Below are positions 4,197 to 7,798 of a stretch of DNA of 64,000 bases, piece by piece. Below the pieces are notes generated by a model. That model did no database searches. It saw only the letters and a program-made list of their open reading frames with translations, and had not been told where the DNA came from. The translations under genes and the position numbers were made by a program. This DNA is from a virus (lineage: Duplodnaviria; Heunggongvirae; Uroviricota; Caudoviricetes): the IMG/VR virus record IMGVR_UViG_3300037067_008629, positions 22,078 through 86,077 of that record; one strand, given 5' to 3'. The number at the start of each line of letters is the position of its first letter. Within the stretch, counting starts at the first letter, position 1.

Positions 4197-4409
4197 TTAA
4201 CGATTTATGGCCCTAAACTTAAAAGTGTAATTCTTAAATTTATAGTTGGCAAAACGTCTTTGAATGGCTTCTAAAGCTTGATCTCGCGCTTTTTCAGTCT
4301 CATACCAGGAATCAGATGCCCAATTATTACTAAAATTGGACCAAGATTCAATGCCAAAACGTTTCTTTTTAGACTTTTTCTTGTATCGGAGTTCTTCGGG
4401 GTCTCTCAT
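4197..4409 (-). CDS. small basic hypothetical protein
   Basis: 70 aa and Lys-rich (YKKKSKKKRFG). Confidence 0.3.
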   Translation of the reverse strand: MRDPEELRYKKKSKKKRFGIESWSNFSNNWASDSWYETEKARDQALEAIQRRFANYKFKNYTFKFRAINR

Positions 4410-5401
4410 CTAACCCTCACAAACGAGCAACATTTGCTAAAATCTTTCAGGCTACTACATCCAACGTAGGTGCAGGCTGATCGAAGGCCGCCAGCTATTT
4501 CCAATAAGATAAGATTTACTGGACCCTTGCTTGGCACTATGGAACATCGTCCCTCAGATGCTGCATACTCTGGGATGCCACCATAATACTTTTCTTGTGC
4601 TTCTTGGCTTGACATCCCGTAGACTTTTAAACCATCTTCAGTCCATGTGCCTTCACATTCTATAGCTCCTGCAACCATCCCACCAAGCATTACAAAATCG
4701 GCTCCCGCTCCAAAACACTTGGCAATATCTCCAGAGGTCTGACAACCCCCATCAGCCATGACTAATCCGCCAAGCCCGTGAGCAGCGTCCGCTGATTCTA
4801 TAACAGCACTCAGCTGTGGATAGCCGACTCCTGTTACTTTTCTAGTCTCACAAAACCGCCCAGGGCCTATTCCCACCTTAACTACATCAGCACCAGCGAG
4901 AATCAATTCTTGGGTCATTTCTGGAACTGCAACATTTCCAGCAACAAGCATACAATCAGGATATAATTCGCGTAGCTTCTGTACCTTTTGAACAAAATAT
5001 TTTGTATGGCCATTCGCAGCGTCCAGACAAATTCTTGGTAGCGGATGACCTAATTGAGTTATAAGTTCTTCAAGTTTATTTAAATCTTCATCTTTGAGTC
5101 CTAGAGTATAGAATAAATAATCTGTATAAGAAGATGCAAATATTTTTTTAAGATTCTCTAAACTATAAAACTTATGTAGAGCACAGCAAGCTTTTAGTTG
5201 CCAGAGTTCTTTTGCAATTCCACAGCATCCCGTGACATCCATGTTGGAAGCACAAATTGGAAGGCAAGTGAATGTCTTCTTAGAATGAAGTAGCTTAAAT
5301 GTTCTAACTAACTCAACACTCTTACGACTGGGAGCATCGCTCCGTTTAGGTCGGATCAAAACATCATCAAAATCGAGTTTAATTCCCTCTTCAATTCTCA
5401 T
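4406..5401 (-). CDS. guaC: GMP reductase (IMPDH/GMPR family)
   Basis: [39 protein letters not shown]...[10 protein letters not shown] is a near-verbatim match to the E. coli GuaC active-site region ([11 protein letters not shown]...[22 protein letters not shown]), including the catalytic Cys. The 331-aa length has no CBS insert, which favours GMP reductase over IMPDH. Confidence 0.8.
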   Translation of the reverse strand: [331 protein letters not shown]

Positions 5402-5651
5402 AATTACCTTTTAATAAAAAGCCAATAATAAATAGTATACCGCTTAGTGGGATTGTAAAAAATAGAAGCCATGGCATCATACACATGTCATAAAGAATAC
5501 CACCAATATCTACATTAACAACCTCTGGCCCTCGTGCAGTTAAATGTACGCCCAGTGATCCGGCAATAGTACAAGCTAGCCAGCAACTTGCCACTGGTCC
5601 CAGTATGCCAAGAATCGCTAATACTATGCAAATAGTCCCAATCTTTTTCAT
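5391..5651 (-). CDS. small membrane protein
   Basis: 86 aa with two to three hydrophobic helices. Confidence 0.4.
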   Translation of the reverse strand: MKKIGTICIVLAILGILGPVASCWLACTIAGSLGVHLTARGPEVVNVDIGGILYDMCMMPWLLFFTIPLSGILFIIGFLLKGNYEN

Positions 5652-6061
5652 TCATCACTCCAGGGGAAGTTTAACCATAAAGGTGGTTTTTCTTGTAGAT
5701 AGTAAGTTGGCTTATAACTGCCTTCTTTCCAAAATAAAACTGCTGTGTCATGTTTACCAAAATGCTTTTCGCAAGTCTGCATCGTGTAACCGCCATCAAT
5801 TAAATCATCAACAATTAAGCAAGGTCCTTCAGGCAACTGACCTTCAATAATCGGAATTTCGCGTGGTGTATGGCCATTATAATGGCTAATTCGTATCTCT
5901 GCATGAGGAATCTCTAACTTCGCAGCTAATGGCTTGGAAATGTGCAATCCACCATTAGCAATTCCAACAACATGCTGGTATCTTGATTTATGTGGCAAGA
6001 TTAAACTTGCCAGATAGGCGATCATTATATCAACTTGCCAAGATTGTAGATTTAAGAACAT
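5648..6061 (-). CDS. gpt: xanthine-guanine phosphoribosyltransferase-like (type I PRTase)
   Basis: The PRPP-binding motif is CLIVDDLIDGGYT. Length and layout resemble E. coli Gpt (VVGIANGGL...; C-terminal WLNFPW against WIEQPW). Confidence 0.65.
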   Translation of the reverse strand: MFLNLQSWQVDIMIAYLASLILPHKSRYQHVVGIANGGLHISKPLAAKLEIPHAEIRISHYNGHTPREIPIIEGQLPEGPCLIVDDLIDGGYTMQTCEKHFGKHDTAVLFWKEGSYKPTYYLQEKPPLWLNFPWSDE

Positions 6062-7113
6062 TAATCTACTCCAAATCTTTTGCGGGTATCATTAAGAGCG
6101 GCATTAGCTTCCGTCGTGGTATTAAAAGCCCCTAAAGTATATTTTCTACCTTGAATTTTAATCTCGGCAATATATTTTCCTCGTTGTTTATGGTACCAAA
6201 CACCTTTTATTCCAGTAGAACTATTTGTCTGGGCCCCACGATTATGCAAATTTCTTGATTTTGTGACAATTCGTAAATTGTCTCTGCGATTATCCAATGG
6301 GTCTTGATTTACATGGTCAATCGTCAAATTTGATTTTGCATTAGGGACTTCTAGTCCCATTCGTTGAATAATTTCTTGGTGCATATAGATTGTTTTAGTT
6401 TTTCCCTTAATTCGAGTCTTACGCATGGCTCGATAAACCTTACTCTGTGGCGTAACACACCAGCACCACTGGTTTAAATGCCGCCAATCTTCTGGACTTA
6501 TTTTTGCTTCAAATGATGGTGCCACTTTAATTGTATCAAGGTCATAAACCATTCCATAATCAAAGAATTTCCATCTATTATAAGTTTCGACCGAAGAATC
6601 ATATGCTACACTTCTTAGATAAGTATATAATTCTTTCCACTTGGAGAAAATCATTTGATGTGGAATAGTTGCCAGCAACCAATCTGGAGCCTCGGCCTTA
6701 CCCTGTTCACAATGCACCAAAATTGGCTTCCCCTCAGTATTAGCTCTAAATACCTCATTCCATGTCCCCACGGAGTAGGCATTAAAATCAATATGACAAA
6801 TAATAAAATCTGAAACATCGACCATTCTTAGATCAATATCTTTAATCGGCTGCATCATTTGCGTAGCCGTATCAAAGTGTCCTGCCCGTTTTTCAATTGA
6901 GCGTAGTTTCCGATGCTCAGAATCTTCGATACCTTCTGCAATCGGCTTCTGTATTGGGTCCATCCAAATAATACCTAAATCTTTCAAATCATGTTTGATT
7001 CGCTGTCGCCAGACTACTCCTCCATCCTTAACAAAATCCATCGGCCCAGCTAAATAACATCGGTTATAAAATAGCCTATTCATGTAATAACTCCGCCCAT
7101 TGTGAGGAACCAA
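6061..7113 (-). CDS. nucleoside 2-deoxyribosyltransferase/DNPH1-like domain fused in frame to an HNH-AP2 endonuclease domain
   Basis: The N-terminal half carries YLAGPMDF and GTWNEVFRANTEGKPILV, the PF05014-type signature with its catalytic Glu. The C-terminal roughly 150 aa carry an HNH motif (LTIDHVNQDPLDNRRDNLRIVTKSRNLH) followed by an AP2 domain (IKGVWYHKQRGKYIAEIKIQGRKYTLGAFNTTTEANAA). No stop codon separates the two parts. Confidence 0.6.
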   Translation of the reverse strand: MVPHNGRSYYMNRLFYNRCYLAGPMDFVKDGGVVWRQRIKHDLKDLGIIWMDPIQKPIAEGIEDSEHRKLRSIEKRAGHFDTATQMMQPIKDIDLRMVDVSDFIICHIDFNAYSVGTWNEVFRANTEGKPILVHCEQGKAEAPDWLLATIPHQMIFSKWKELYTYLRSVAYDSSVETYNRWKFFDYGMVYDLDTIKVAPSFEAKISPEDWRHLNQWCWCVTPQSKVYRAMRKTRIKGKTKTIYMHQEIIQRMGLEVPNAKSNLTIDHVNQDPLDNRRDNLRIVTKSRNLHNRGAQTNSSTGIKGVWYHKQRGKYIAEIKIQGRKYTLGAFNTTTEANAALNDTRKRFGVD

Positions 7114-7798
7114 TACGAGTACAACCGAGGTCTAAGTAATTTGCTACGTCATCATAAGAATGTATACCCCCGCTAGCTTTAATTTTTACATTAGTTCCTT
7201 CTAAAGCTTTTTTCATAGTTAAGATATCTTGTACACTTGCCCCACGAGTACCAAAACCAGTGGATGTTTTTACATAGTCTGCACCAGCATCGGCAGCTAT
7301 GAGACATGCTTGGGTAATCTGGTCTGGAGTTAAATAACAAGTTTCCAGAATTACTTTGAGAATTATTTCCTTACTTAACCAATCTATGCTAGCCCGAGTC
7401 TCATAAATATCATCGTGTACATAGTCCACGTCACCATTTAGGAGGGCTGCATAATTCATTACCATATCTATTTCAATAGCACCAGCTTTAATAGCTAATT
7501 GTGCTTCTTCACTTTTAGTAAAAGAATCATTACACCCAAGTGGAAATCCAACTACAGTTGAAATAGGCACTCGAAATCCAGCGGCCCAATAAATATAGCA
7601 CGGATGCACACAAACTGAAGCGAAGCCATTGGCTTTCGCCAGTAAACAAGCTTTTTGCACATCATGTGGGCTTGTAGTTGGCTTTAAAACCGCATAATCC
7701 AATGCAGCCGCTATTTGCTCATTAGAATACATAAGACTCCAATTGTTCAGATATTGAATTTCCAAGGTACAGTAATACCTGGCTGAGAAGCCAAGCAA
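7076..7798 (-). CDS. deoC: deoxyribose-phosphate aldolase
   Basis: DeoC-like TIM barrel with VKIKASGGIHSYDDV, ADYVKTSTGF and the conserved Lys positions. Length is 240 aa. Confidence 0.75.
   Translation of the reverse strand: MLGFSARYYCTLEIQYLNNWSLMYSNEQIAAALDYAVLKPTTSPHDVQKACLLAKANGFASVCVHPCYIYWAAGFRVPISTVVGFPLGCNDSFTKSEEAQLAIKAGAIEIDMVMNYAALLNGDVDYVHDDIYETRASIDWLSKEIILKVILETCYLTPDQITQACLIAADAGADYVKTSTGFGTRGASVQDILTMKKALEGTNVKIKASGGIHSYDDVANYLDLGCTRIGSSQWAELLHE

Follow-up and report, generated by a model that had tools for sequence, protein, structure and literature searches.

The DNA analysed here is a 64,000-nucleotide (nt) stretch of the IMG/VR virus record IMGVR_UViG_3300037067_008629 (hereafter the window), and the subject is a cluster of metabolic genes on its minus strand. 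The cluster encodes a deoxyribose-phosphate aldolase (DeoC), a protein with a domain of the nucleoside 2'-deoxyribosyltransferase (NDT)/DNPH1 superfamily, a Gpt-like purine phosphoribosyltransferase (PRTase) and a GMP reductase (GuaC). The window was recognized as a segment of a phage genome, with genes for a tape-measure protein, a family A DNA polymerase, a helicase and a primase, together with two tRNAs. Its GC content was 38-39%, and the minus strand carried nearly all of its genes. A megablast search with positions 4000-8600 against 50,697 phage records returned zero matches. The DNA polymerase of the window hit phage records at 25% identity or less only, and no close cultured relative of the window was found.

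An earlier note on this DNA, made from the sequence alone, had placed the four enzyme genes side by side. All four were found at the coordinates given in Table 1, and each was confirmed by a profile search or a fold match. That description of the cluster was right for the four enzymes and did not mention two further elements, namely, a small membrane protein and an HNH-AP2 module fused to the NDT-like domain. According to the list of open reading frames (ORFs), consecutive genes of the cluster overlapped or abutted by 1-11 nt. The deoC stop and the start of the NDT-like gene overlapped by 8 nt, the PRTase start overlapped the preceding stop by 1 nt, and the ORF of 86 amino acids (aa) shared 4 nt with the PRTase stop and 11 nt with the GuaC start. 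No terminator-like site was found in positions 3300-9400, and a promoter scan of the sequence detected 21 sites against 17.8 expected from shuffled sequence, which was no better than expectation. In this layout, the cluster looks like one translationally coupled operon.

Table 1. Genes and domains of the cluster, listed from the deoC end.
Feature	Coordinates	Strand	Remarks
deoC, deoxyribose-phosphate aldolase	7076-7732	-	218 aa from ATG 7732; mechanical ORF to TTG 7798
NDT/DNPH1-superfamily N-glycosidase or transferase domain, putative	6553-7083	-	177 aa from ATG 7083; ORF 6061-7113
HNH_3 + AP2 homing-endonuclease module	6061-6552	-	in-frame C-terminal fusion to the NDT-like domain
Gpt-like purine PRTase	5648-6061	-	137 aa; PF00156
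Conserved protein with two hydrophobic segments	5391-5651	-	86 aa; ORF between PRTase and GuaC
guaC, GMP reductase	4406-5401	-	331 aa; NF003470

The deoC product scored 201.9 bits against the equivalog model TIGR00126 (cutoff 117.3) and matched the Pfam DeoC family with an E-value of 2.8e-16. Its sequence contained DYVKTSTGF and KIKASGGI, which carry the Schiff-base lysine motifs KTSTG and K.SGG; we take these lysines to be the equivalents of K167 and K201 of the E. coli enzyme. A GGAG sequence, a candidate ribosome-binding site, was located 5 nt before the ATG at 7732, so this codon, and not the TTG of the mechanical ORF, is probably the true start. Upstream of it, a hydrophobic ORF of 44 aa (MKVLSQLVLFFVVCGITLFIAWLL...; 7722-7856, minus strand) spans the interval from the stop of gene p241 to the DeoC start and overlaps both. 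This ORF is missing from L096, a 175-kb viral contig of 40% GC that is the closest relative with the full cluster and in which p241 overlaps DeoC directly. It may encode a small membrane peptide or be a chance ORF.

The NDT-like domain scored 26.7 against PF05014 (Nuc_deoxyrib_tr; cutoff 28.8) and 17.3 against PF15891 (cutoff 30), both below the gathering score, and several of its homologues carry precomputed matches to PF05014 or PF15891. We identified 27 homologues with 42-54% identity, which were mostly stand-alone proteins of 175-193 aa. All of the homologues begin with MNRL; thus, the gene in the window probably starts at ATG 7083. An AlphaFold model of the domain had a pLDDT of 93.7 and a pTM of 0.89. 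The Foldseek comparison with the PDB ranked nucleoside 2'-deoxyribosyltransferases first (E 6e-7, TM-score 0.6-0.7), followed by DNPH1/Rcl (E 1e-4), the CMP N-glycosidase BcmB and YtoQ, all with a probability of 1.00. There were 45 PDB fold matches with E <=0.001, and among the matches listed, the top 48 were all NDTs, DNPH1/Rcl, BcmB, YtoQ or putative NDT-like proteins. The fold, together with the catalytic triad described below, placed the domain in the NDT/DNPH1 superfamily, as the earlier note had suggested, and not in an unrelated family.

The assignment of homology rests on the fold, and the sequence alignments, which were weak, were used for residue mapping only. A phmmer search with the whole NDT-HNH protein against PDB sequences returned nothing. 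The family profile gave marginal matches to PDB sequences (E 0.12 for the PDT of T. brucei, TbPDT), and the hhalign comparison with rat Rcl, the sequence of which was checked against PDB entry 2KHZ, was also weak (E 0.11). These two independent, weak and mutually agreeing alignments mapped Tyr10, Asp84 and Glu110 of the family to the triad of TbPDT and rat Rcl, and the three residues were invariant in 81 family sequences. Position 104, six residues before the nucleophile, was occupied by Ser in the window protein and by Ala, Pro, Ser or Thr across the family, but never by Asp or Asn. In the weak alignments, Ser104 was aligned with the 5'-OH-binding Asp of TbPDT and with Ser87 of Rcl, which is presumably the phosphate-binding serine of that enzyme. 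In the published study of the phage NDT-superfamily enzyme DmtZ, the absence of the 5'-OH-binding Asp explains monophosphate specificity, and the triad Tyr was credited with excluding ribosylated substrates (PMC12884076); the invariant Tyr10 corresponds to that Tyr. Taken together with the adjacency of DeoC, these alignments fit an enzyme acting on 2'-deoxynucleoside 5'-monophosphates (dNMPs). The position of DeoC next to the gene further suggests that the enzyme would hydrolyse a dNMP to the free base and deoxyribose-5-phosphate.

The PRTase was a type I enzyme that scored 43.8 bits against Pfam Pribosyltran PF00156 (cutoff 26.3). Its best PDB match was E. coli XGPRT (1A97/1NUL), which aligned over the full length with an E-value of 3.6e-8, and both results bore out the Gpt-like call of the earlier note. 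The score against the Gpt equivalog NF006613 was 40.3 bits and did not reach the cutoff of 138 (37.7 bits for the L096 orthologue); the protein is therefore named Gpt-like, not Gpt. The motif for 5-phosphoribosyl-1-pyrophosphate (PRPP), IVDDLIDGGYT, aligned with VIDDLVDTGGT of XGPRT, and W129 aligned with W134, which presumably stacks on the purine in the XGPRT structure. The PRPP motif and the C-terminal Trp were invariant across 27 PRTase homologues. In the scan of viral contigs, a single protein query gave nothing and an alignment query succeeded; all viral loci with a PRTase at least 37% identical to that of the window had it beside GuaC and/or the NDT-like gene. The repeated adjacency to GuaC suggests that the PRTase would prefer guanine or xanthine.

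GuaC matched the Pfam IMPDH/GMPR family (PF00478) with an E-value of 1.4e-59 and scored 416 bits against the NCBIfam GMP reductase equivalog NF003470 (cutoff 397); the older TIGR01305 model gave 381 bits, and its cutoff of 492 was not reached. The alignment with human GMPR2 (2A7R) was end-to-end over 328 residues, with no large gap and an E-value of 2e-98. The protein kept the catalytic Cys loop (GPG..C.TR), DGG, YGMSS and SEG (ASEGR), the roles of which we assume from the GMPR literature, and had no CBS subdomain. It was 49% identical to Salmonella GuaC, so "almost identical to E. coli GuaC", words that the earlier note used of the active-site loop, would overstate the resemblance of the protein. 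Close viral relatives shared 60-85% identity. In a rough neighbour-joining tree, the GuaC copies adjoining NDT-like genes split into separate clades, and the window clade was closer to GuaC of bacteria (Planctomycetota) than to the remaining NDT-linked viral clades. This topology suggests that GuaC was recruited beside the NDT-like enzyme more than once. GuaC homologues of the second group, the GuaC-linked phages, also passed the GMP reductase equivalog, with 474 bits. The 86-aa protein gave zero matches in Pfam, PHROG and NCBIfam. Its position is conserved in L096, where it has 88 aa (L096 8411-8677), and the Logan contig L004 carries an identical copy. The flanking PRTase and GuaC were 74% and 77% identical, respectively, between the window and L096.

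The HNH_3 + AP2 module forms the last ~160 residues of the NDT-like ORF. HNH_3 scored 30.5 bits in Pfam (cutoff 24.8) and AP2 scored 25.7 bits, below its cutoff of 33.3; residues 234-348 matched PHROG 99, 'HNH endonuclease', with an E-value of 2.8e-30. The same fusion junction (...DYG.LY...) was found in P0001, P0007 and P0009. In L025, L028, L037, L045, L053, L054, L180, L181 and L194, an HNH match on the same strand followed the NDT match at a distance of 28-46 nt. The fusion-bearing homologues included several GC-rich relatives. L096 was without the fusion, its NDT-like gene ending at 179 aa; in this contig, a separate HNH gene follows the methyltransferase (L096 4801-5298). We considered a read-through or frameshift artefact as the source of the fusion and rejected it, since three independent homologues shared the fusion junction and two of these had no internal Met.

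At least 358 IMG/VR viral contigs and 82 stretches of GTDB species-representative genomes encoded relatives of the NDT-like family. By tblastn, the 50,697 phage records yielded one match, an uncultured huge phage, and the family was absent from the cultured phages searched. Linkage was counted in a sample made up of the best 80 viral loci and the contigs from an exact-protein look-up, using tblastn with the window proteins. The loci were collapsed at 90% NDT identity into 57 non-redundant lineages. The tblastn coordinates replaced an ORF clustering that had merged HNH and NDT through the fusion and had hidden DeoC in GC-rich loci. DeoC lay within 800 nt upstream of the NDT-like gene in 27 of the 57 lineages, and in 20 of these the two genes overlapped or were within 40 nt of each other. 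A divergent DeoC-like gene 4-8 kb downstream was detected in 13 more lineages; the one tested scored 69.8 bits against the 117-bit cutoff. GuaC lay within 3 kb downstream of the NDT-like gene in 23 of 57, and only 7 loci had neither DeoC nor GuaC.

The gene order was also compared in single contigs, and each possible pair of the four genes was seen in at least one of them. L096 had the full order DeoC, NDT-like, PRTase, 88-aa membrane protein and GuaC. Partial orders included NDT-PRT-x-x-GuaC in L095, NDT-PRT-GuaC in L176, PRT-GuaC in L097, L099 and L100, and NDT-PRT in L101; the P0050 contig had DeoC-PRT-GuaC, with no NDT-like gene annotated. Distant NDT-like relatives of ~135 aa were adjacent to DeoC on contigs of Asgard archaeal metagenome-assembled genomes (MAGs; L228, L210, L224, L236 and L248). 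In L228 (5250-8649), the NDT-like domain was fused to an unknown C-terminal part of ~200 aa, with a PNP/UDP-family phosphorylase nearby, and this setting looks like a cellular deoxynucleotide catabolic cluster. Two NDT-superfamily genes stood in tandem after DeoC in L007 (9537-10576), L008, L020 and L029; one tandem copy in L007 and L008 was a canonical PF05014 protein of 154 aa, and the second copy in L020 and L029 comes from the ORF clustering. The counted co-occurrence of the four genes in relatives clearly favours a functional unit. The linkage on which the earlier note had built was not lost among relatives: the pairs DeoC-NDT, NDT-GuaC, NDT-PRT and PRT-GuaC, as well as the full five-gene order, recur. 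The gene overlaps, together with a linkage that recurs in many unrelated contigs, make the arrangement more than chance.

The presence of GuaC followed base composition. GuaC stood beside the NDT-like gene in 23 of 31 lineages with a locus GC below 45% and in 0 of 26 lineages with 45% or more (Fisher p = 1.6e-9, kinship ignored). By synteny, the window was placed in an otherwise GC-rich, DeoC-linked group with which it has the methyltransferase, zinc-ribbon, p241 and BCS1-like ATPase genes in common; Planctomycetota MAG contigs as long as 1.07 Mb contain members of this group. The window (39% GC) and its low-GC relatives L095, L096 and L176 have added the PRTase and GuaC. The window also encodes a dCMP deaminase (39749-40225, minus strand; Pfam E 2.4e-17) beside tRNA-Thr (40273-40345). 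This enzyme shared 44% identity with the deaminase that adjoins DNA ligase and MazG in L007 and L013, and in the window its gene has moved ~25 kb away. No MazG homologue was found in the window, unlike in L007, L011 and L013, which have one close to the module. In the AT-rich GuaC-linked loci L039-L094 (e.g., L058 4548-12498), the NDT-like gene and GuaC lie among glycosyltransferases (GT4, GT2, GNT-I-like and GT34-like), and a GT4 glycosyltransferase nearly always comes next after GuaC. Further neighbours in these loci are methyltransferases, a PfkB-family kinase, and ferritin-like, SET-domain and sigma-70 region 4 proteins.

Starting from the observed gene identities, catalytic residues, operon structure and recurrent linkage, we infer the substrates (a dNMP and guanine), the flux direction and the physiological role as follows. 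We tentatively propose that the operon lets the phage salvage purine deoxynucleotides, with the NDT/DNPH1-like enzyme at the centre of the route, a reading that may well be correct but that we place somewhat short of probable. Degradation of host DNA would release purine dNMPs, chiefly dGMP. The NDT-like enzyme would split dGMP into guanine and 2-deoxyribose-5-phosphate through a covalent deoxyribosyl-5-phosphate intermediate on Glu110, helped by Tyr10 and Asp84. DeoC would convert the deoxyribose-5-phosphate into glyceraldehyde-3-phosphate and acetaldehyde, which would enter central metabolism. The Gpt-like PRTase would join guanine and PRPP to give GMP, and GuaC would reduce GMP to IMP with NADPH. 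Host PurA, PurB and ribonucleotide reductase could then form adenine (deoxy)nucleotides. The net effect would be to move G units that are surplus to a 39%-GC genome into the A pool, and on the purine side the route would correspond to the dCMP deaminase of the window.

The succession of Gpt and GuaC is the classical enterobacterial interconversion of guanine to IMP. We know of no enzyme that converts dGMP directly to GMP, so removal and re-attachment of the base would be the only route. The restriction of GuaC to low-GC phages matches the proposed salvage. The earlier note had likewise envisaged deoxyribose being stripped and fed to DeoC and guanine passing through GMP to IMP, and this is supported as the simplest pathway that would use all four enzymes.

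Several observations weigh against this proposal. The mapping of the triad to Rcl and TbPDT came from weak alignments (E 0.11-0.12) that are anchored by the fold match only. The window copy departed from the consensus at 4 of 46 highly conserved columns. The active-site columns were nearly identical between the GC-rich DeoC-linked and the AT-rich GuaC-linked phages, with only positions 21, 41 and 42 switching; a split into a G-specific enzyme in one group and an A-specific enzyme in the other is therefore unlikely, and rebalancing from G to A leaves the role of the enzyme in GC-rich phages unexplained. The association of GuaC with GC content is confounded by phylogeny; most GuaC-linked loci come from one or two phage lineages, and L015, a low-GC relative, was without GuaC within 8 kb. 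The MAG bin labels were Planctomycetota for the GC-rich group and Bacteroidota for the AT-rich group, which suggests that host GC was similar to phage GC, so a surplus of G may stem from RNA and not from host DNA. In addition, the family keeps Pro43, aligned with the transferase-type proline of TbPDT. The corresponding proline, Pro57 in DmtZ, is conserved in all known transferases and is thought to exclude water (PMC12884076). The family also has an acidic residue at Tyr+6, which is, by sequence offset only, the position of Asp12 of DmtZ, proposed to select dAMP (PMC12884076).

An explanation that we consider unlikely and yet take seriously is that the NDT-like enzyme acts mainly as a phosphodeoxyribosyltransferase in the manner of DmtZ, which would rebalance dNMPs directly (e.g., dGMP + adenine -> dAMP + guanine). 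The PRTase and GuaC would then recycle the displaced guanine, and DeoC would clear the deoxyribose-5-phosphate formed in a hydrolytic side reaction. The invariant Pro43, matched by the prolines of TbPDT and DmtZ, and a pocket that, as in DmtZ, is without the 5'-OH-binding Asp both agree with transfer. DmtZ is a precedent for one phage NDT-superfamily enzyme that both hydrolyses a dNMP and transfers deoxyribose-5-phosphate (PMC12884076), and the linkage to the PRTase and GuaC fits disposal of displaced guanine equally well. However, the coupling to DeoC is tight and widespread (overlapping or within 40 nt in 20 loci, and also in archaea), which suggests that free deoxyribose-5-phosphate is the main product and not a by-product. 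Furthermore, the family had no detectable sequence similarity to DmtZ, and the source of a free acceptor base is not evident. That the family is a widespread natural phosphodeoxyribosyltransferase, swapping purines on dNMPs or loading a non-canonical purine, seems equally doubtful to us. If it were, base swapping would let uncultured phages retune their dNTP pools with no need of ribonucleotide reductase and no expense of ATP, and DeoC, the PRTase and GuaC would be its disposal and recycling arms.

A role in pool cleaning or anti-defence appears distinctly improbable. Here the NDT-like enzyme would destroy unwanted dNMPs, such as methylated or damaged dNMPs from host DNA, dIMP, dXMP or nucleotide-derived immune signals, and DeoC would remove the sugar, in parallel with the action of mammalian DNPH1 on hydroxymethyl-dUMP. 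The structural relative DNPH1 was indeed named 5-hydroxymethyl-dUMP N-hydrolase by the PDB depositors, N6/N4 DNA methyltransferases are regular neighbours of the module, and a near-identical active site in GC-rich and AT-rich phages suits a substrate that is independent of base composition. Such a role would leave unexplained both the repeated placement of the Gpt-like PRTase with GuaC and the tracking of low GC by GuaC, and no defence or anti-defence gene was recognized beside the enzyme (the PADLOC library was not searched).

We give very little credence to the idea that the cluster makes or handles a non-canonical purine, with GuaC reducing dGMP to dIMP or the NDT-like enzyme loading hypoxanthine or another base on deoxyribose-5-phosphate; DmtZ does offer the precedent of an NDT-superfamily enzyme that builds a non-canonical dNMP, and glycosyltransferases and methyltransferases are abundant near the module of the AT-rich group and elsewhere in the window, but GuaC passes the strict GMP reductase equivalog and keeps the GMPR motifs, including DGG, no PurZ, DpdA or 7-deazaguanine synthesis gene was among the ~50 window ORFs, a part of the total, scanned with Pfam, and the window is without a MazG homologue. 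It is just as improbable that there is no shared pathway and that four auxiliary metabolic genes were gathered independently in a variable region, each boosting a host reaction: the cultured phages Stenotrophomonas RAS14, Xanthomonas XacN1 and Caulobacter Cr30 have GuaC without the other three genes (no DeoC, NDT-like gene or PRTase is annotated within 6 kb of it), and the module varies, DeoC being missing in L095 and L176 and the NDT-like gene being unannotated on the P0050 contig, but linkage in dozens of non-redundant loci, at least two GuaC clades and archaeal contigs, the translational coupling of the genes, and the position of all close PRTase relatives beside GuaC and/or the NDT-like gene speak against it.

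Several other features of the window were recorded. A BCS1-like AAA ATPase of the mitochondrial-chaperone type (BCS1_N + AAA + lid; 10146-11405, minus strand) lies close upstream of an N6/N4 DNA methyltransferase (9392-10156, minus strand). In the window and in L095 the two genes overlap; on the P0050 contig they are separated by a peptidase-like gene. Unusually for a phage, the ATPase recurs in the window lineage (L095, L176, the P0050 contig and L015). A 320-aa protein with a pyrimidine-dimer DNA glycosylase (Pyr_excise) domain is encoded at 2390-3352 (minus strand), and a 413-aa counterpart lies downstream of GuaC on the P0050 contig. At 27552-32060 (minus strand), two large proteins (531 and 585 aa) with weak matches to GT41 (O-GlcNAc-transferase-like) stand beside a C-methyltransferase with a zinc-binding N-domain; they may modify sugars or virion components. 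ParB N-terminal domains were found in two separate proteins (22009-22932 and 42057-43031, minus strand). The sole plus-strand block, at 43724-48075, consists of three genes, one of which is primase-like and encodes 919 aa. A sign change in GC skew occurs at 44-48 kb, and the block may mark a replication origin or the place where divergent transcription units meet.

Phages adjust their pyrimidine pools through dCMP deaminase and thymidylate synthase, and phages with modified bases remove canonical purine nucleotides. To our knowledge, a dedicated phage route that rebalances ordinary purines has not been described. The individual enzyme families were already known, as was DmtZ (2026) as a phage NDT-superfamily dNMP hydrolase. 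In the literature, we found no account of a phage operon that unites these four genes (DeoC, NDT-like, Gpt-like PRTase and GuaC) and none of this NDT-like family; one paper does no more than list GMP reductase among the genes of deep-water pelagimyophages. If the salvage proposal is true, this NDT/DNPH1-fold family would be the entry point of a route for rebalancing ordinary purines, and an optional GuaC arm, present in AT-rich phages only, would tie gene content to genome base composition. After DmtZ, the family would also be the second characterized viral branch of the NDT superfamily, whose enzymes attract interest as biocatalysts for nucleotide analogues. It is large, extending over viral contigs, Planctomycetota-associated prophage-like regions and distant relatives in Asgard MAGs, yet is absent from culture collections.

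Compared with known systems, the operon has a close functional parallel in the enterobacterial gpt, guaC and deo genes, which catalyse the same three reactions; the phage GuaC and DeoC both pass equivalog models. In bacteria, gpt, guaC and deoC are scattered, and deoxyribose-5-phosphate is obtained through a nucleoside phosphorylase and phosphopentomutase, whereas the phage set forms one operon with a proposed N-glycosidase feed and a PRTase that is only distantly Gpt-like. The GMP reductases of the cultured jumbo and T4-like phages Cr30, XacN1, Xoo-sp13 and RAS14/CM1 are GuaC homologues of 37-45% identity and are annotated as GMP reductase. The NDTs (Lactobacillus NDT/PDT, T. brucei PDT and Chroococcidiopsis NDT) are the best structural matches of the NDT-like domain, and their YxAGP motif, Pro and GT..E nucleophile motif align with it; their 5'-OH-binding Asp, six residues before the nucleophile, is Ser, Ala, Pro or Thr in the phage family.

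DNPH1/Rcl has the same fold, a corresponding triad (Y10/D84/E110 in the family versus Y13/D69/E93) and a corresponding serine (Ser104 versus Ser87), and its product, deoxyribose-5-phosphate, is the substrate of DeoC; DeoC is the coupling enzyme in the standard assay for dNMP hydrolysis (PMC12884076). By contrast, the NDT-like family is only 12-16% identical to it, with no significant sequence match. Its members are ~40 residues longer, their loop following the YLAG motif is extended, and they carry a conserved C-terminal extension (RW.FF). The family is also viral, keeps the transferase-type proline and is partnered with DeoC, Gpt and GuaC. DmtZ of the PurZ0 Z-genome phages (PMC12884076, NAR 2026) is likewise a phage NDT-superfamily enzyme and acts on a purine dNMP; like the present family, it has no 5'-OH-binding Asp/Asn, keeps the transferase-type Pro and has an acidic residue at Tyr+6. 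DmtZ differs in being linked to DutZ and PurZ0 and in serving 2-aminoadenine DNA, and the two have no detectable sequence similarity. Neither Dut nor PurZ was found near the NDT-like gene in the window; the enzyme may act as DmtZ does, but it does not belong to the DmtZ clade. Finally, the phage dCMP deaminase/thymidylate synthase route resembles the proposed purine route in turning surplus G:C-type nucleotides into A:T-type nucleotides for an AT-rich genome, but it works at the dNMP level, whereas the purine route would detach the base and pass through ribonucleotides.

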